This document shows, piece after piece, positions 23,565 through 32,976 of a stretch of 64,000 nucleotides of DNA. The position numbers were made by a program, and so were the translations under genes. Every line of letters starts with the position of its first letter. Positions within the stretch are counted from its first letter, which is position 1. The notes under the pieces were generated by a model, which had not been told where the DNA came from, made no database searches, and was given only the letters and a program-made list of their open reading frames with translations. Location of the stretch: the NCBI RefSeq assembly GCF_002753895.1, contig NZ_NJER01000001.1:1114910-1178909 (forward strand), written 5' to 3'. Origin of the DNA: Halobacteriovorax sp. JY17. Its GTDB lineage: Bacteria > Bdellovibrionota > Bacteriovoracia > Bacteriovoracales > Bacteriovoracaceae.

Positions 23565-23981
23565 ATGACTAAAAAAGTAATCGTAAGCGCCTGTCTCGCC
23601 GGACTAAATTGTAGATACGACGGAGATAATAAGAGGCGTGAAGACATTGTTGAAATGGTTAAACGCGGAGAAGCTATCCCTGTGTGCCCTGAGCAACTTG
23701 GAGGCCTTAGTACCCCCAGAGAGCCTGCTGAAGCTGTAGAAGAGAAGGTACTCACAATCAATGGTAGAGATGTCACTTTTGAGTATAGTAGAGGTGCAGA
23801 TGAGGCCTTTCTAATTACACAAATGTCAGGAGCAACTGAAGCCCTATTAAAGAGCAAGTCTCCCATGTGTGGTGTGGGCTCCGTCTATGATGGGAGTTTC
23901 ACAGGTACTATGAAGAATGATGATGGTATTTTTACCAAACTCTTAAAAAAGGCCGGTATAAAAGTCACTCCAGTAGACTAG
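23565..23981 (+). CDS. DUF523 family protein (2-thiouracil desulfidase TudS-like)
   Basis: VSACL.G..CRYDG, PVCPEQLGGL.TPR and LKSKSP.CG motifs. Confidence 0.88.
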   Translation: MTKKVIVSACLAGLNCRYDGDNKRREDIVEMVKRGEAIPVCPEQLGGLSTPREPAEAVEEKVLTINGRDVTFEYSRGADEAFLITQMSGATEALLKSKSPMCGVGSVYDGSFTGTMKNDDGIFTKLLKKAGIKVTPVD

Positions 23982-25438
23982 AGATTTGTTGGAAACTCAA
24001 GAGTGATTGTTGTATTTTCTTTTGAGTTATCTATAAAAAGTCTTCCATTATGTTCTTTAGCTGTTGAAGAAGAAATACTTAATCCAAGTCCTGTTCCCTC
24101 ACCAATATCCTTCGTCGTAAAAAAAGGTTCGAACATTTTCTCTTGAATTTCTCCAGGAATCCCTCCCCCACAGTCTACGACAGAAAAGCTTATTAAATCA
24201 TCACCTTTCACTACAATTAACTTAATCCAAGGCTTGTCCATTCCCTTTATTTCGTCGCGAGCATTATTTAAAAGATTTATTATAACCTGAGTGATCTTAA
24301 CTTCCTGACATTGAATCTCAGTCGAAAAATCAAAACCTATAAACTCTGTAGTAATATCTATTCCCTTTTCATTGAGAGACATTTGACAAAGATCAAGTAG
24401 TCTTTCAATTAAATCATAAATTACAACAGTCTCAAACTTCTCTCCAGCAGTATCTCTTGATAACCTCTTCAAAGAAGTAATCGTCTTAGTCATTCTCTCA
24501 ACAGTCCTATTTATCATACTCCCAAAGTGCTTCAATCGATCTCGGTCTAATTCATCATCACGTAAGAGGTGAAGGATTTTCTTTCCACTAAATGATAGAA
24601 CTGTAAGTGGATTATTAATTTCATGAGCAATATTTGCGGCCATCTCCCCTAGACTGGCAAGTCTAGCAGAATTTATTGAAGCGGATTTTTGAAGCTGAAT
24701 CTCACGTTCTTGTCTTTGAATTTTCTCATTTGTTTCAAAGTTTGCTCTCTCAACTCTCTCTAACATATTATTAATTGAGTCTTTCACATAATCTAATTCA
24801 TCAATATCTGGACTTCCCTTCTTTAAGGAAAGCCTCTCAATATTTAGTGAGTTAAGATCTGCCTTCTTTAAGAAATTAACAATATAATCGAGATGCTTTG
24901 TCACCAAAATTCTAAAGAGATAGAGCATCGCTAAAATCACCATTAGAGTCTTAACAAATTGGGCCAGAAAGAAGTTAATTAGCTTCGAGATTAAATTTTC
25001 ATTAATATGAGCTTTTGTCGCCCAAATAACAAGCTCTCCAAGTTGATGAGAATATTTATTCTCTTTTAAAAAGAGAGGGAACTTTGCAGAGAATTTATCA
25101 AGCATTTTATATTCTGCTTCAGTATTTTGATAATAGATCTGTCCATCTTCATCATAAATAGCAACTCCTACAATATCTCGAAGTTTTAAAATGGAGTCCA
25201 GCTGTACTTGAATCTGTAAATCATCTAAGTTCCATAAAGATCTCGACAAGGACGTAGAATTTGAACCTCCAATATGAGTCAAGGTTTGATTCAAGTAAGC
25301 TAAATCTCTCTTATATTCAATGTAATACTGAAGTGCTGTTGTAAATAACGTAATGACAGAAGAAGCAAGTAGAATGGCAACCATAAGCTTTCGCCTAAGA
25401 GAGATAAATTTTTTAAATTTTAGATTATCTACTGCCAT
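23978..25438 (-). CDS. Membrane-bound sensor histidine kinase (orphan in this window)
   Basis: Two TM segments around a periplasmic domain, H-box AHEINNPL, N-box NLLNNA, D/F/G boxes DCGGGI, FEPFFTTK and GTGLGL. Confidence 0.93.
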   Translation of the reverse strand: MAVDNLKFKKFISLRRKLMVAILLASSVITLFTTALQYYIEYKRDLAYLNQTLTHIGGSNSTSLSRSLWNLDDLQIQVQLDSILKLRDIVGVAIYDEDGQIYYQNTEAEYKMLDKFSAKFPLFLKENKYSHQLGELVIWATKAHINENLISKLINFFLAQFVKTLMVILAMLYLFRILVTKHLDYIVNFLKKADLNSLNIERLSLKKGSPDIDELDYVKDSINNMLERVERANFETNEKIQRQEREIQLQKSASINSARLASLGEMAANIAHEINNPLTVLSFSGKKILHLLRDDELDRDRLKHFGSMINRTVERMTKTITSLKRLSRDTAGEKFETVVIYDLIERLLDLCQMSLNEKGIDITTEFIGFDFSTEIQCQEVKITQVIINLLNNARDEIKGMDKPWIKLIVVKGDDLISFSVVDCGGGIPGEIQEKMFEPFFTTKDIGEGTGLGLSISSSTAKEHNGRLFIDNSKENTTITLEFPTNL

Positions 25439-25558: not shown

Positions 25559-26392
25559 TTAACCGATAAGCTTAAGAGCTGCTTGTCCTTGAGAGTTAGA
25601 CTGTGCAAGAACCGAAGTACCAGCATTTGTAAGAATATTAAGTTTAGTATTCTTAGCAGTCTCTGCAGCAAAGTCAGTGTCTCTAATTCGAGAGTTTGCA
25701 GCATTTAAGTTCTCAGAACTAATTTGTAGGTTATTGATAGTAGAACTTAGTCTGTTCTGCTTCGCACCTAGCTCCGCTCTTTGTCCAGAAACCATTTGAA
25801 TCGCTGTATCTAATGACTCAAGCCCTGTCTGAGCATCATCTTTAGAAGATACTGATAACCCGTCTACTCCCATATTTGAGATTGAAGAGTTCAGTACTTG
25901 TGTATCAAATGAAATTCTATCCTGGAATTCATCGTTGTTAATACCGATTTGGAAGTCATACTTATCTCCAGCACCATTTAATAGCTTCTTACCGTTAAAT
26001 TCAGTTACTTGAGAAATACGTTCCATTTCTTGCTTTAAATTTTGATATTCTAAATCAGTAAACTTTCTCTCCGCATCACCAACTGTGTCCGATGCTGATT
26101 GAACTGAAAGTTCTCTCATTCTTACTAGGATGTTACCAATCTCTGATAAACCGCCTTCTGCAGTTTGGATCATTGAGATACCATCGTTAGCGTTTCTTTC
26201 TGCTTGATTTGTAGACTTGATTTGAGCTTTCATCTTTTCAGAGATCGCTAAACCTGCAGCATCATCAGCTGATCTTACAATTCTTGTTCCAGAAGATAAT
26301 TTGTTTAAAGTCTTGGCCTGTTCACCATTGTTAACACCCAAAGTTCTTTGAGCTGATAGTGAAGTTGTGTTAGTTGCAATACGCAAACCCAT
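25559..26392 (-). CDS. fliC: Flagellin (short, 277 aa)
   Basis: [50 protein letters not shown] end. Confidence 0.97.
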
Positions 26393-26661: not shown

Positions 26662-29361
26662 ATGAGTACAAAGCCACTTATATTTATATATCCCCTTTCA
26701 GAAACAATGAAGAAACTCAAAGAAGCAATTGAGGAAATTTCAGAATCTGAAGGTGTTGAGATCTATGAAGTCGATGACTTAACGGAAGTGGCCCAGCTTG
26801 TTCCTACAATTGGACAGTCTCTATCTATCTACGGCGCCCCTAAGAAATGTGCCATGGCCCTAAAGCAATTAAAGAAAATTAATTCCAAACTTAACTCAAA
26901 AGTTCTTCTCTTAAATGAAAAATCTATTCCAAGAAAGACGTTAGATAAGTTTTCTAAAATAGGTCTTACTGAATTTATTCAAGAACCTGTTCCAGCGAAA
27001 ACACTACTCTATAAAGTAAAGCTCCAGCTAAAATCGATAGTGAATGACGAATTTGACGAAGAAGAGGAAGAAGTTGGAGTTAAATCTTCTAATGAGTCTA
27101 CTGAAGAAGCTGATGAATCTGTCTACAAATCTTCGAAGAACAATAATCAAGGCGATGAAGAAGATGACGGTCTTGATTATTTAACAAAGAAGAAGAAAAA
27201 GGCAGCTTTTGAAATAGAACAAGCGGAAAAAAAGAAAAAGAAAAGTAATTACCATGAAGAAGAAATAGATTCTCACTGGCAAGGGAAGTTAACAAAAGAA
27301 GAACTCTCTCTAGAAGACGTAGATCTCCCAGAAAAAGAAAAAGCTAACGAAAACCTCATTGATAATTATCTTAGAGGAAAACAAGATACTCACGAAAATA
27401 TTGGTGATGAAGAAGAGCAAAGAAGAAAGAATAACTATAGAGATGAGATATTAGACGAGAACTTAAGCTCTAATGCAAAGAGAGATAGTCTCGAGGCAGA
27501 CTACGCTACCCACAAGAACAAAGCTCATACAGAACTAGACCTTGATGACATAAAGAAAGATCTCCAAAGAGAGCTACAATCAGACCTCACCCACTACAAA
27601 GGCTCAGTTAGCACTCATGAAGAAGAGAGTGAAGACGAGGAAAAGAAAAAGAAGAAAGGATCAACTATTTTAAATGTTGAGCAAGAAAAAGACTTCACCG
27701 ACTATGATGAAGATGATGAGCACCTTTCCAAGAAAAAGAAAAAACCTCTCACTATTTTGAATATGGAAGAAAAGGAGCTCACACAAGAGCACTACGAAGA
27801 AGAAAGTGAAGAAAAGAAGAAAAAGAGTCATCAAGAGACTCTAGAGGTAGAAAAACCAGCTTCTGAAAGTCTAGTAGAGCATCTTAATAGTGAAGAAACT
27901 AGCGGAAAAGGATCCACAGATAAACTCGACAAGTACCTTAGAGGTGGTTCGGCCAAGAAAGGTCAAGAGGAAGAAAATAAAGAAGATGAGAAAGACTTAA
28001 AAACGTCGGCAGAGATTAGCTTAGAAGAGAATGATTTAGACCTAGATGATCAAGAAGAGAATGAAGATAAGAACTCTAAAGACTATAATAAAGATGCGGA
28101 ACTTAAAATTGATCGAGCAAAGAAAGATTTAGAAAAAGAAGAACACTCTTATGAAGAAGAGAGTGAGGATTATCTGAAAAAGAAGAAAAGTGTCGATTTA
28201 CAATTTGATCCTTCTTCAAAAGAAAAGTCCGAATTAGAAGAGGAAGAAGAAAGAAACTATCAGCACAAAAAAGAAAAGTCCGCAGAGCTTGAAGAGAGAG
28301 AGAAGCAGGCTAGAACGAAGCAAGAGATAGAAGAAGAAAAGAAGAATAAAACTCATGAGTCTAAGACTGATAACTTGACCAAAGAGAAAATGAAATCCGA
28401 TAGTAAAGTTGACAAGATTCAGACTCATTATAGCAGTGAAGCAAGCGTTAGCCACGTAGACGATGATTGGAATTTTTCGAAATCTGAAAAGAAAGTCGAA
28501 AAAGAAGAGTCACTTAGAAAAGACCTTAGCGAAAGTATGAGCTATGGAGAAAAAGTGGATCTAGGTGAGCAAACTATTGATTATAGAAAACTAAAGGATG
28601 AGTTTGGCGGAATCACCATTGATAGATCAGGAAACTCTCTTAAGAAAACTGGTCCCAAATACTACGGCGGAGGTCCAGGTCGAAAAGCTAAAACACCAAG
28701 CTATTATAGAGATGATGAAGAACAAAGCGAAGAACTACTAAATGAAGAGAGTACTGAAGAGCAAATGACTTCTGAAGATCAAATATTTGAGCCTATCTCA
28801 AAGGGTCTAGAAAATATAATTAAGGTCTTAAATTTCTATAACCTTAACAAAGATGCTGATGAGCAGGCCTATAAGTATGTCTCTAAGATTATTCAAAGTA
28901 ACTTCAATGGTGAAATGGCCTTATTCTACTATGATGAAAAAAAATCTAGAGTTAATGAAGCTACTAACTCTCTAAACCTTTTAGGAGATATGGAACTCGA
29001 AGCCAAGAAACCTATATGGGATAAATTATTTTCAAGAAGCTATAGGTCATGGAAGGATATTAAACTTCCAACATGGAGTGATGAAACATTTCAAGATGAT
29101 AATATTCAATTTATCTACCCCTATTTTGAGGGAGCAAGCCTCATGGGATTTGCTGTGACATGGTTTACAAATAAGTTTGATGAAAAAAGATGTCGAGAAC
29201 TAGAGGTCACACTTGAAACTCTTAGAGGGTTTCTCATCGCAAATTTTAGGAAAGGAATGCACACTGGTGAATATAATGGGCAAGAGAAGAAAGAAGAGAA
29301 AGTAAAATCAAATCCTATAAAATCCTTATTTGGAAGTCTATTTAAAAGGAAGGCATCTTAA
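26662..29361 (+). CDS. Pseudo-receiver + about 580-aa charged low-complexity region + C-terminal GAF-like domain
   Basis: N-terminus ends GLTEFIQEPV..KTLLYKVK, like a receiver beta5-alpha5 without the conserved Lys. Residues about 127-705 are E/K/D/S-rich. C-terminal YPYFEGASLMGF...FDEKRCRELE resembles a GAF end. Confidence 0.6.
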   Translation: MSTKPLIFIYPLSETMKKLKEAIEEISESEGVEIYEVDDLTEVAQLVPTIGQSLSIYGAPKKCAMALKQLKKINSKLNSKVLLLNEKSIPRKTLDKFSKIGLTEFIQEPVPAKTLLYKVKLQLKSIVNDEFDEEEEEVGVKSSNESTEEADESVYKSSKNNNQGDEEDDGLDYLTKKKKKAAFEIEQAEKKKKKSNYHEEEIDSHWQGKLTKEELSLEDVDLPEKEKANENLIDNYLRGKQDTHENIGDEEEQRRKNNYRDEILDENLSSNAKRDSLEADYATHKNKAHTELDLDDIKKDLQRELQSDLTHYKGSVSTHEEESEDEEKKKKKGSTILNVEQEKDFTDYDEDDEHLSKKKKKPLTILNMEEKELTQEHYEEESEEKKKKSHQETLEVEKPASESLVEHLNSEETSGKGSTDKLDKYLRGGSAKKGQEEENKEDEKDLKTSAEISLEENDLDLDDQEENEDKNSKDYNKDAELKIDRAKKDLEKEEHSYEEESEDYLKKKKSVDLQFDPSSKEKSELEEEEERNYQHKKEKSAELEEREKQARTKQEIEEEKKNKTHESKTDNLTKEKMKSDSKVDKIQTHYSSEASVSHVDDDWNFSKSEKKVEKEESLRKDLSESMSYGEKVDLGEQTIDYRKLKDEFGGITIDRSGNSLKKTGPKYYGGGPGRKAKTPSYYRDDEEQSEELLNEESTEEQMTSEDQIFEPISKGLENIIKVLNFYNLNKDADEQAYKYVSKIIQSNFNGEMALFYYDEKKSRVNEATNSLNLLGDMELEAKKPIWDKLFSRSYRSWKDIKLPTWSDETFQDDNIQFIYPYFEGASLMGFAVTWFTNKFDEKRCRELEVTLETLRGFLIANFRKGMHTGEYNGQEKKEEKVKSNPIKSLFGSLFKRKAS

Positions 29362-30392
29362 TGGCCATTACAGATAATTACTTCTTTATCGAATTAGAAG
29401 ATCTTTCTGAAAAGAAGATTTTTCCTTATCACCTCTTTGTCTTTAATCCTGCCAATGAATCTGTCAGTCCTTTCTTAAAAGCAAATTCTCCTCTCGTTGG
29501 TGATAAGCTTGATTTTCTTGAGTTTATATTAAGTAAAGGTGGTCGCTTAGCAGTCGATAGGAAGCAAAAGAAAACTTTTTTAAGTACTCATTCTTTAATT
29601 GAAGAAGAATTTAAGGGCCTTCAAGAAACTATTCATTACTTGGATGAAAAGAGGGCTGAAAAAATTCAAGAACTAGAGAAACAGACTAGTATTCTGGGAG
29701 AGATGAAGTTTAAAGAAGAGCTTCTAAGCTCAATCACTGATGATGACTATATGTCTATGATTGAAAGAGTAAGGCTAGAGACTGATACTTTTAGTGCACG
29801 AGTCTCCCACACAGTAAGCTTAGCCAGCTACTTATGTGAAAAACTCTTAGTTGAAGATAATTTTGTGAATAGAGTTGTTGCAGTCTCTTACTACTTAGCA
29901 AAGAACTGCGATATGAAAGACGAGCAGACGCTAGGAGATTTAATTTGTGCTGCATTCTTTAGTCATATTGGAATGACTCAACTAGATTATAACCTAGGTC
30001 ATAAAGCACATTTAGAATATAATAAGAGTGAGTTAAAAGAATATAAGAAACACCCTAATCTCTCTCACCACTTACTAAATAAGAGCGAAGTTGAGCTTAG
30101 TAATAGATGCATGAATATTATATTCCAGCATCATGAAAGAAATGATGGTTCTGGCTTTCCAATGTATAAGAAAGGGGAACATATTGATCAACTTTCATTA
30201 ATACTTGGTGCAGTATCTCATATATTTGAATACTCAGAAGGAAAAGTGACTGGAACAAAGACGAATATGACAACAGTTATAAGAAATTTAAAAAATAAAT
30301 CTTTCACTGCTGGACTAGAGTTCGAGTTTGGAGATAAAATATACGAAAGCTTAGTAAATATAATTAACACAGAGACAGAAGAAGCTGCTTAG
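29361..30392 (+). CDS. Degenerate HD-GYP-domain protein
   Basis: QHHERNDGSGFP...KGEHI and KKHP..S motifs are present. The HD dyad position reads AAFFSHIG and GYP reads GFP. Start overlaps the upstream stop. Confidence 0.8.
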   Translation: MAITDNYFFIELEDLSEKKIFPYHLFVFNPANESVSPFLKANSPLVGDKLDFLEFILSKGGRLAVDRKQKKTFLSTHSLIEEEFKGLQETIHYLDEKRAEKIQELEKQTSILGEMKFKEELLSSITDDDYMSMIERVRLETDTFSARVSHTVSLASYLCEKLLVEDNFVNRVVAVSYYLAKNCDMKDEQTLGDLICAAFFSHIGMTQLDYNLGHKAHLEYNKSELKEYKKHPNLSHHLLNKSEVELSNRCMNIIFQHHERNDGSGFPMYKKGEHIDQLSLILGAVSHIFEYSEGKVTGTKTNMTTVIRNLKNKSFTAGLEFEFGDKIYESLVNIINTETEEAA

Positions 30393-30400
30393 GAGAAAAG

Positions 30401-30793
30401 ATGGCCCTTAAAAGTGATATGAAAATTCTTGTCATTGACGACATGGCAACGATGAGAAAAATTATCAAGAACATGCTAAAACAAATTGGTTTTACCAATA
30501 TAACTGAAGCAGATGATGGTGCTACAGCATGGCCAATGATTCAAGAGGCGCTTAATAGTACTGCTCCTTATGAATTTATCGTCTCAGATTGGAATATGCC
30601 TCAAATGAGTGGTCTCGACCTTCTAAAGAAAGTAAGAGAAACAGAAGAGCTTAAGAAGCTACCATTTCTTATGATTACAGCAGAAGCTGAGCAAGGGAAT
30701 GTTGTTATCGCAGTAAAGGCCGGAGTTAGTAACTTCATTGTTAAGCCCTTCTCTGCTGCAGTCTTAAAAGAGAAAATAGAAAAGATTTTTTAA
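30401..30793 (+). CDS. cheY: Chemotaxis response regulator CheY
   Basis: ILVIDD..TMRKII, DWNMP.MSGLDLL, MITAE, KPF; single-domain enteric-like CheY. Confidence 0.9.
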   Translation: MALKSDMKILVIDDMATMRKIIKNMLKQIGFTNITEADDGATAWPMIQEALNSTAPYEFIVSDWNMPQMSGLDLLKKVRETEELKKLPFLMITAEAEQGNVVIAVKAGVSNFIVKPFSAAVLKEKIEKIF

Positions 30794-30805
30794 AAGGGCC
30801 TAAAA

Positions 30806-31309
30806 ATGAGCTTATTAAATGATCCATCAATGAAAGAAGTTGTAGATGAATTCTGTAATGAATCAATGGAACTCTTTAATGAATTAGAAGAAATTCTTGA
30901 AGAGTTTGAAGATGATCCTACACAGACAGATAAGCTTGAAAAGTTTGGACAAATAATTGATAGAGTCATGGGATCTGCTAAAACGATTGGAGCCGATGAA
31001 ATTGCGACTTTCTGCGAACTAGGAAAGGTCATTGGTTATAAATCAAGCCAAGTTAAGGATACTGCCCTACTTGAAGTTGTTTGCGCCATTATGTTTGACT
31101 CGTTAGAGCTTTTAAAGAAAATGATTAAACAAATTGAAGAAGGTAACTCTTCTTCTTTTGAACAAGTAAGTTCCGTCACATTTGTAACTAGACTAAAATG
31201 GCTTAAAGAAAAATTTAACGATATTGAACGTTCCTCTTGTGCTGCTGATCCAGAGGGCAATCTCACTCAGACATCTATTGATGATCTAATGAGTAGTCTC
31301 GGATTATAA
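30806..31309 (+). CDS. HPt/CheA-P1-like protein lacking the phospho-His, with CheZ-like C-terminal peptide
   Basis: EF.NES.EL..ELE..L.E.EDDP and IIDRVMGSAKTIG align with FRAAHTLKGSA. The protein has no His at all and ends QTSIDDLMSSLGL. Confidence 0.7.
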   Translation: MSLLNDPSMKEVVDEFCNESMELFNELEEILEEFEDDPTQTDKLEKFGQIIDRVMGSAKTIGADEIATFCELGKVIGYKSSQVKDTALLEVVCAIMFDSLELLKKMIKQIEEGNSSSFEQVSSVTFVTRLKWLKEKFNDIERSSCAADPEGNLTQTSIDDLMSSLGL

Positions 31310-31321
31310 TTTGGAGAAATA

Positions 31322-31831
31322 ATGACAAAGCAAAGTAATTTTTTAACATTCTCAAAACCTTTCATAGATGCTGCTAAGAATGTTTTTGAAACAATGGTTT
31401 TTACAAAATTAGATCCACAAAAGCCTACTATTAAGACAGACTCTCTTTCTAAAGGTGATATCTCTGCAGTACTAGGTCTAAATGGCGAAGTTGAAATAGA
31501 TGGCGAAACAAAGCCTTACCGAGCGATGTTAGTTATCTCATGGCCCTATGATACCTACTTCAAAGTAGCGAGTGCCATGCTTATGGATACTTTTATTGAA
31601 TATAATGATGAAATCGCTGATGTTGGTGGAGAAATCTGTAATATGATAATGGGAAATGCTAAGAGAGACTTAGCGACTCAAGGTTATACTTCTAATATGG
31701 CCATTCCTTCGATGATCGAAGGAGCAAACCATAAGATTAAGTATCCTGCAGGAACTACAGTTATACTCATTCCAATAAAATCAGCTCACGGCGATATGTT
31801 TATTGAGCTATGCTACTCTCAAGCGGATTAA
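31322..31831 (+). CDS. cheX: CheX-family CheY-P phosphatase
   Basis: PFI.A...VF.TM, DISAVLGL.G, catalytic GEICNMIMG (ExxN), P..I.G. Confidence 0.9.
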   Translation: MTKQSNFLTFSKPFIDAAKNVFETMVFTKLDPQKPTIKTDSLSKGDISAVLGLNGEVEIDGETKPYRAMLVISWPYDTYFKVASAMLMDTFIEYNDEIADVGGEICNMIMGNAKRDLATQGYTSNMAIPSMIEGANHKIKYPAGTTVILIPIKSAHGDMFIELCYSQAD

Positions 31832-32976
31832 GAGAATTCTTCAAAGGGGAGATTCGTTCTCCCCTTCCATATATTTAAATTTATTTCATACTCTTCTTTC
31901 TTAGCATCAAGAATGTCCACCTGAGCAAAAGACAATTGTTCACCAGAAGGATTTTTTCCAAAATCAAGATTATACATTCTTGTCCACGTACCTGTATTAA
32001 TGAATATTCCCCCATCAGAAAAAGATCTAAAACTAGGGTCATGAGTATGTCCTACAATTAGGCACTGAACTTCTGGTCTCTCTCTAAAGAAATCCATTGT
32101 CATTGTCTCGTAGTCTTTAAAGAGCTCTAGCTCGTTCATACAATGTTTGTACATCTTCTTTAAACTTCTCTCTTGCTTAAAGAGATAAATAGAGCGAACC
32201 ATTATAAAGTAGTAACTAGTTGCAAAGAGAAACCTTAGTGTGAAGAAAGTGTCATAAATAAGTCCGTTAATTATAAATTTCCTAATTGGACGAACGGCAT
32301 TAACATGATCTCTTTCCTCTTTAAACTTATTGATAACTCTTGTTACATAGTAAGATCCCCAAGGAGGAAGAAAATATTTCTCTCCGTCTTCAGACTCTAC
32401 AATAGACTTAACAGGGTGAAAGTGATGAGCGAGCTCATACTCGTGTCCATGCTTTAGAACAACACCAGGAGTTGGTATATATTCCCCATTATTATTAAGC
32501 TGAATATTCACACGTTCCCTATTCTTCTCTTCAAATAAGTCATAGAAGCGATCTCTTAAAGATTCAAAGACAAACTCAGCATCATGATTACCAATAATAT
32601 AAACTAGCTTTTTATTCTTATGTGAAACAAAGCGGTCAAGGGCCTCTAGAACTTCAGAGTGCGCCTTAATGATCATTTCGAGTTTACTTAGAGCTGCCTT
32701 CTCACTCCAGAACTCATCATCGAAGTAATTAACAAATGGCACAGCAAGAAGATCAAAGAGATCTCCATTAATAATTAACTCAACCTCCCTAGAAAGATAA
32801 TCATGTGAGGAATAGTAATCAAGAAAATCTACCAGCTCTTTATCAAAGTGAAAGTCTTCAAGATAATTTCTCTTTCCATTTACCATTACTCCTGCACCTA
32901 AGTGAATATCAGAAATAACGAGAATGCATTTATCAATTTTATTCTTTCGAAGGAATCTCATAGGCCTTTTTTCCAA
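31828..32976 (-). CDS. Calcineurin-like metallophosphoesterase
   Basis: SDIHLG, NGDLFD, GNHD, HGH and GHTH motifs. Confidence 0.9.
   Translation of the reverse strand: MEKRPMRFLRKNKIDKCILVISDIHLGAGVMVNGKRNYLEDFHFDKELVDFLDYYSSHDYLSREVELIINGDLFDLLAVPFVNYFDDEFWSEKAALSKLEMIIKAHSEVLEALDRFVSHKNKKLVYIIGNHDAEFVFESLRDRFYDLFEEKNRERVNIQLNNNGEYIPTPGVVLKHGHEYELAHHFHPVKSIVESEDGEKYFLPPWGSYYVTRVINKFKEERDHVNAVRPIRKFIINGLIYDTFFTLRFLFATSYYFIMVRSIYLFKQERSLKKMYKHCMNELELFKDYETMTMDFFRERPEVQCLIVGHTHDPSFRSFSDGGIFINTGTWTRMYNLDFGKNPSGEQLSFAQVDILDAKKEEYEINLNIWKGRTNLPFEEFS

Follow-up and report, generated by a model that had tools for sequence, protein, structure and literature searches.

What can a protein with the fold of a histidine phosphotransfer domain do in chemotaxis when it contains no histidine? 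The question is raised by a gene (30806..31309, + strand; 167 codons and a stop) in a 64,000-nucleotide stretch of the genome of Halobacteriovorax sp. JY17, the whole of which is referred to here as the window. The gene follows cheY, precedes cheX, and encodes a His-less P1/HPt-like protein, here termed HPtD, whose C-terminus resembles that of CheZ. Phosphatases of CheY-P are found in few folds, those of CheZ and of CheC/CheX/FliY, and also in the linker region of CheA3, and all known examples, to our knowledge, insert an acid/amide pair into the receiver active site. A literature search on the HPtD family (Hpt, CheX, CheZ, pseudo-HPt, Bd1816/Bd1818) found no paper.

Fold and acceptor site of HPtD

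The Pfam Hpt model (PF01627) matches residues 11–110 of HPtD at 25.2 bits (cut-off, 24.6), and the top NCBIfam match falls in the N-terminal part of a CheA model. Among solved structures, the P1 domain of T. maritima CheA (2ld6) is matched by the single sequence with an E-value of 0.0027 (HMMER), and by a profile of 29 orthologues with an E-value of 2.5e-6 over residues 9–117. The AF2 model, built on the alignment of the 29 orthologues, has a mean pLDDT of 74.7 (85–96 in the bundle) and consists of helices 7–36, 42–61, 64–80, and 86–112, a fifth helix 123–145, a disordered segment, and a short last helix 155–164. The first four helices form a P1-type bundle (helices A–D, residues 7–112; 30824..31141, +), and the fifth (31172..31240, +), in which R129, L130, and W132 are nearly invariant, is placed as helix E of CheA P1. 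The linker that follows (residues 146–153; 31241..31264, +) is variable, is modelled with a pLDDT below 50, and is about 6–14 residues long among homologues, 313 of which were found.

The top Foldseek matches of the model are CheA P1 domains (2ld6, 1i5n, 1tqg, and 3kyi; TM by target, 0.66–0.81). HPtD has the same fold as the P1 domains of T. maritima CheA (2LD6, 1TQG), Salmonella CheA (1I5N), and R. sphaeroides CheA3 in its P1–CheY6 structures (3KYI/3KYJ), with detectable homology, and it keeps the F-x-x-E motif of helix A, Pro38, and the G-x-A-x-x-x-G pattern that follows the His position. Unlike CheA, it is a stand-alone protein without P2–P5 and without the His, and it carries an extra linker and a peptide of the CheY-docking type. 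Judged from sequence and model, HPtD probably descends from a CheA P1 (HPt) domain.

There is no histidine anywhere in the 167-residue translation. The helix B signature L44-E-K-F-G-Q-I-I-D52-R-V-M-G-S-A-K59 (30935..30982, +) lies where CheA has its phospho-His motif, and a GAT codon (30959..30961, +) puts Asp52 in place of the phospho-accepting His; in both the single-sequence and the profile alignments, D52 pairs with H45, the phospho-His of T. maritima CheA P1. In the profile alignment, Met55 pairs with K48 of T. maritima, and Lys74 of helix C (31025..31027, +) pairs with E67, the His-partnering Glu of CheA P1. We take K48 and E67 to be the equivalents of E. coli K51 and E70, which form the P1 catalytic triad together with the His and tune it; all three triad positions are therefore changed in HPtD. 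The HPt fold, the lack of histidine, and the replacement of the phospho-His by Asp, each proposed in a preliminary description of the locus, are borne out by these comparisons.

When 1.84 billion representatives were searched exhaustively with the profile, 438 matches reached E ≤ 0.001, 210 of them also E ≤ 1e-10, and conservation was read from an alignment of 124 near-full-length representative clusters among the best 150 matches. The possibility that homologues mostly retain the His, raised in the same description, was checked in this alignment: position 52 is Asp in 120 of the 124 representatives (97%) and His in none. R53 (93%), M55 (92%), G56 (94%), A58 (90%), and K74 (98%) are likewise conserved; position 45 is Glu in 70% and Asp in 6%, and position 49 is Gln in 70% and Asn in 14%. 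The spacing i, i+4, i+7 brings Glu45, Gln49, and Asp52 onto a single face of helix B. Members of the family that are devoid of the C-terminal peptide all keep Asp52.

Because the replacements of His by Asp52, of Lys by Met55, and of Glu by Lys74 are themselves conserved at 92–98%, the site has been rebuilt and has not decayed. The invariance of D52, R53, M55, G56, and K74 points to a site that is active or a hot spot rather than dead, and a site that is both rebuilt and invariant argues for gain rather than loss of function; what has probably been lost, on these alignments, is the ability to carry phosphate. HPtD is a member of the HPt/P1 fold superfamily but is without the features that define its function, the His and its helpers, and should therefore not be filed as a phosphotransfer protein.

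The C-terminal peptide and the comparison with CheZ

HPtD ends in a putative CheY-P-docking helix of the CheZ/FliM type (31265..31306, +), assigned by its conservation and by comparison with the E. coli CheZ tail. Its extreme C-terminus, LTQTSIDDLMSSLGL, stands against ASQDQVDDLLDSLGF in E. coli CheZ (b1881, read from MG1655), the longer ends compared being TQTSIDDLMSSLGL for HPtD and SQDQVDDLLDSLGF for CheZ. From the Gln onward, 7 of 13 residues are identical and 10 of 13 similar, and the consensus common to the two is [ST]Q-x-x-[IV]-D-D-L-[LM]-x-S-L-G-[FL]. The 29 orthologues all have Q155, S157, I158, D159, L161, L165, G166, and L167, and the tail is carried by HPtD in nearly all syntenic loci and by about 55–70% of the wider family. 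Of the 5401 six-frame ORFs in the whole genome that reach 50 aa, HPtD is the only one with even a loose version of the motif at its C-terminus, and the match to CheZ is thus more than chance. The FliM of the same genome has an N-terminus that resembles the tail (it starts MAQVLSQDEVDALLN, with LSQDEVDALL), and the N-terminal motif of FliM is the classical CheY-P-binding motif.

The CheZ-type tail reported in the preliminary description therefore stands, on its 7/13 identity to E. coli CheZ, its conservation in homologues, and its uniqueness in the genome. The term "chimeric", used there for the whole protein, needs care because only the terminal peptide of HPtD resembles CheZ; the body is not CheZ-related. 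Pfam CheZ (PF04344) gives no match to HPtD at E ≤ 1. Homology of the body to CheZ was rejected on an hhalign value of only 19%, anchored on the tail, in a comparison of the 124-member family with a CheZ alignment of close enterobacterial sequences, whose low diversity makes the test not very sensitive. In that comparison, the catalytic helix of CheZ (D143/Q147) is paired with helix D of HPtD, not with helix B. E45-x3-Q49 of HPtD, with the acid-x3-amide spacing of D143-x3-Q147 in CheZ, may be a counterpart of that catalytic pair; it is 70–84% conserved, and hhalign does not pair it with D143/Q147. The HPtD segment FGQIIDRVM looks like TGQVIKRMM of CheZ, a likeness kept solely as a possible functional analogy. 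Pfam likewise gives no CheC/CheX match in HPtD.

HPtD and CheZ (PF04344; structure 1KMI) are alike in having a terminal amphipathic peptide after a flexible linker, and the HPtD gene follows cheY as cheZ does in E. coli, whereas the HPtD bundle is short and of the P1 type and CheZ is a long dimeric hairpin. CheX, CheC, and FliY belong to the same pathway, and CheX is the product of the neighbouring gene, but their alpha/beta fold is unrelated to that of HPtD. The joining of a CheY-binding peptide to a phosphatase body is the design of FliY. By sequence, HPtD is not a member of the CheZ family and appears to have no more in common with CheZ than the docking peptide and, possibly, the logic of catalysis.

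The stop codon of cheY (TAA) and the start of HPtD (30791-30808) are in frame and 12 nt apart, and the same in-frame arrangement, with TAA as the sole type of intervening stop, is found in 13 related loci. As a modelling device, a fusion of 302 aa was built in which the TAA is read as Gln and followed by KGLK and then HPtD, with an alignment of 116 rows (the query, 13 other in-frame read-throughs of this kind, and 102 rows in which CheY and HPtD were unpaired). The AF2 fusion has a pTM of 0.51, so the arrangement of its two domains is not confident. The pLDDT of the tail helix rises from 38–41 in the HPtD monomer to 61–68 in the fusion, a weak and indirect indication that the tail has a packing partner within the modelled fusion.

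The same genome encodes a tail-less paralogue of 143 aa (C1:1301905-1302330, −, corresponding to L086:1504-1935; core EEVGQMVDRIYGTAATLG), in which Asp52 is kept, as it is in other tail-less members of the family (L077–L079). A CheY paralogue, 33% identical to the CheY of the window, lies about 2.3 kb from this gene (C1:1304586-1304969). In a distant branch (L094:1793-2221, −; L095:4547-5113, +; L096:2565-3098, −), Asp-Gly replaces Asp-Arg within the core AQKIDGIMGCAKTMG, and the tail differs, ending ...EEDEKNLRKRFGM.

Operon and gene order across Bdellovibrionota

In the window, HPtD belongs to an operon in which a gene for an 899-aa protein, an HD-domain gene, cheY, HPtD, and cheX follow one another with gaps of −1, 8, 12, and 12 nt. 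The first gene (26662..29361, +) encodes a protein characterized here by composition and alignment and called the scaffold, which contains 16% Glu, 15% Lys, and 8% Asp and has no Pfam or NCBIfam match; the C-terminal region of this protein is conserved, and its N-terminal domain (residues 1–126) is receiver-like but without an acidic pocket. The second (29361..30392, +) encodes an HD-GYP-like HD-domain protein of 343 aa (Pfam HD_5, 59.5 bits), in which the canonical HD dyad is apparently missing (FFSHIGM) and GFP stands at the GYP position. The cheY gene (30401..30793, +; 130 aa; Response_reg, 88.8 bits), which lies in the same frame as HPtD, has the NCBIfam CheY model as its top match at 147.9 bits, under the 189-bit cut-off of that model, and its product fits the model best among the CheY paralogues of the genome. 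The cheX gene (31322..31831, +; 169 aa; Pfam CheX, 64.9 bits) encodes the motif DVGGEICN (D-x3-E-x2-N) and is followed by a terminator-like hairpin, identified by pattern match only (31844..31866, +).

A divergent flagellin gene (25559-26392, −) lies upstream of the operon, beside the gene of a CHASE5-HisKA-HATPase sensor kinase (23978-25438, −), and a gene for a calcineurin-like phosphoesterase of 382 aa (Metallophos; 31828-32976, −) is convergent with cheX. The Metallophos gene occupies the same position in most related loci, with 42–92% identity. The main cheA-cheW operon of the genome lies elsewhere (C1, about 1.634–1.637 Mb), with no cheY paralogue listed beside it.

Gene order was compared in 80 related loci, nearly all of them labelled Bacteriovoracales or other Bdellovibrionota. 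In most, cheY is directly upstream of HPtD, with a gap of 2–25 nt or a 4-nt overlap, and cheX, which is syntenic in most, either follows HPtD directly or lies about 1.5 kb upstream; the HD-domain and scaffold genes remain in the cluster even in loci with a rearranged order. A cheA gene was never seen beside HPtD in the loci examined. The link to CheY and CheX proposed in the preliminary description is thus backed by gene order that is conserved across the phylum.

A sample of 151 Bdellovibrionota genomes contained no Pfam CheZ above cut-off, and there is no CheZ in the genome of the window, which is 100% complete. The HPtD profile matches 40 of the 151 genomes, the weakest matches being P1 domains of CheA-sized ORFs, and CheX is also present in 39 of the 40, a figure that is descriptive only since related genomes are not independent. 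Named records of the HPtD family come from Bdellovibrionota only, along with one contig that bears the label Flavobacteriaceae, possibly through mis-binning.

In the Bdellovibrio family, the HPtD homologue is full length and 34% identical, with the core YGNNVDRIMGG and the tail RQSEIDDLLKKLGL. It divergently adjoins Bd1817, an unconventional HD-GYP protein (PDB 3tm8), as seen at L087:5070-5996 (−), where the Bd1817-type HD-GYP gene adjoins the homologue, and cheX is 4–8 kb away. Between the HD protein of the operon and the Bd1817-type HD protein there is marginal similarity only (BLASTP E 0.01). In other families, the cheY, CheX, HD-domain, and HPtD genes cluster in different orders: L094–L096 combine cheY, a protein of roughly 290 aa that ends in a CheX domain (checked with Pfam for L094), an HD-domain protein, and an HPtD-like protein, while the order in L097 is cheX-cheY-HPtD. 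The N-terminus of the L094 CheX fusion was considered as a pseudo-receiver scaffold domain, an assignment that is unsupported (hhalign 11% over 26 residues).

The scaffold domain was detected in 26 of the 151 genomes, some of which have no HPtD, and was not found in the Bdellovibrio family within this sample; the partnership with HPtD is therefore not obligate. In metagenomic members of the HPtD family that are 327–378 aa long (P0137, P0147, P0164, P0195, P0399, and P0400), the first ~125 residues show homology to the scaffold's N-terminal domain (BLASTP E 1e-13, 9e-11), and these natural fusions functionally link the scaffold and HPtD. The neighbours of the fusion genes are housekeeping genes. 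Some of these pseudo-receiver–HPtD fusions have lost Asp52/Arg53 and kept a tail, which argues that the bundle and tail can be useful without Asp52. The scaffold recalls ChePep, a chemotaxis regulator of Epsilonproteobacteria that is very acidic and has a receiver-like N-terminus (PMC3143842). The likeness is one of architecture only, and HPtD, as the partner of the scaffold, is P1-like, not CheZ-like. ChePep, for its part, is reportedly found in a complex with CheZ(HP).

Possible roles of HPtD in CheY-P signalling

On balance, sequence and models tilt slightly towards HPtD being a tethered terminator of CheY-P, acting either as a phosphatase itself or through CheX. In such a protein, a flexible linker and a C-terminal peptide of the CheZ/FliM type would have been added to a P1-derived body. 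Like the tail of CheZ, that of HPtD would dock on CheY-P at the alpha4-beta5-alpha5 face and thereby supply affinity for CheY-P through a CheZ-like tether. CheA P1 binds CheY, and the docked tail would hold the P1-like face of HPtD over the CheY active site in the way that P1 docks on CheY. The carboxylate of Asp52 would then come to the position of the His N-epsilon, flanked on the same helix face by Gln49, Glu45, and Arg53. As Asp is shorter than His, a water molecule could fit in line with the acyl phosphate, and Asp52 may position this water and so speed hydrolysis, in the manner of Asp143/Gln147 in CheZ and of Glu/Asn in CheX. Alternatively, CheY-P bound by HPtD would be handed to the neighbouring CheX.

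How far HPtD is catalytic by itself is more doubtful. Intrinsic activity towards CheY-P, argued from sequence and by analogy, seems to us a serious proposition that nevertheless falls somewhat short of an even chance. The stronger claim, that the phosphotransfer domain of the kinase has given rise in HPtD to a CheY-P phosphatase of a new structural class, which fills the role of CheZ in Bdellovibrionota, is advanced tentatively, and we would sooner expect it to fail than to hold; in this case, the change of His to Asp, together with Lys74 and Arg53, would have turned the acceptor position into a water-positioning catalytic site. Against catalysis, the amide at position 49 is present in only 84% of representatives and the acid at position 45 in 76%. 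A second phosphatase is also not obviously needed, as an intact CheX adjoins HPtD, and the fusions that keep the tail without Asp52/Arg53 are more readily explained by binding than by catalysis.

HPtD could accordingly be a pure adaptor, with the tail capturing CheY-P and the helix B/C face binding CheX and/or the pseudo-receiver scaffold; it would then give CheX the tether that it is missing, as FliY and CheZ carry CheY-binding peptides of their own. To this role we assign a minor share of the probability, and hold it unlikely. The proximity of CheX in many families of the phylum and its near-constant presence in genomes with an HPtD profile match (39 of 40) are what an adaptor would lead one to expect, as are the natural fusions of HPtD to the scaffold N-terminal domain and the retention of the tail in several fusions without D52/R53. 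CheX and a P1-like domain would, moreover, compete for one CheY surface, so that only one of them could sit on the active site. An adaptor explains less well why D52/R53/K74 are just as invariant in Bdellovibrio, in which no scaffold was found and cheX is 4–8 kb away, and why they are invariant in tail-less paralogues too; no fusion of HPtD with CheX was seen, and CheX acts alone in spirochaetes.

If HPtD covers the CheY active site without promoting hydrolysis, it would be a buffer or shield that prolongs or sequesters the signal in competition with FliM and CheX. HPt binding can indeed shield a phospho-Asp from water, as Ypd1 protects phospho-Ssk1 in yeast, and Arabidopsis AHP6, a pseudo-HPt with Asn for His and no docking tail, is a competitive inhibitor in the plant phosphorelay. 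AHP6 and HPtD have in common the HPt fold and the replaced phospho-accepting His, which precludes a phosphate relay, but they are unrelated in lineage and context, and AHP6 has no rebuilt site. We regard shielding as improbable: an HPt fold without a phospho-acceptor suits it, and a tail of the same kind as the N-terminus of the organism's own FliM makes competition at the motor-binding face plausible, yet simple shielding would not need the rebuilt, invariant polar site D52/R53/K74, the genomic partner of HPtD is a phosphatase gene, and a phylum without CheZ would need terminators more than stabilizers. A role away from CheY-P, as a P1 decoy that enters the catalytic site of CheA P4 as a non-phosphorylatable or phospho-His-mimicking pseudo-substrate, with the kinase inhibited in a feedback loop by way of tail-bound CheY-P, is given very little credence. 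CheA P1 domains are the closest sequence relatives of HPtD, and the cheA-cheW operon of the genome has no listed adjacent cheY paralogue; however, HPtD was never beside cheA in the loci examined, its conserved linkage is with cheY and cheX, and a decoy would have no need of the tail.

If HPtD is a terminator of CheY-P, a phosphatase or phosphatase cofactor built on an HPt domain would represent a very short path from phosphodonor to phosphatase, with one docking surface kept and one residue swapped, and the family would provide a natural test of how an HPt–receiver pair chooses among transfer, protection, and hydrolysis. HPtD is also a candidate partner for Bd1817, an HD-GYP protein that is structurally solved but functionally obscure. 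For the predatory bacteria of this phylum, which do without CheZ, such a protein would help to explain how the chemotaxis signal is terminated.
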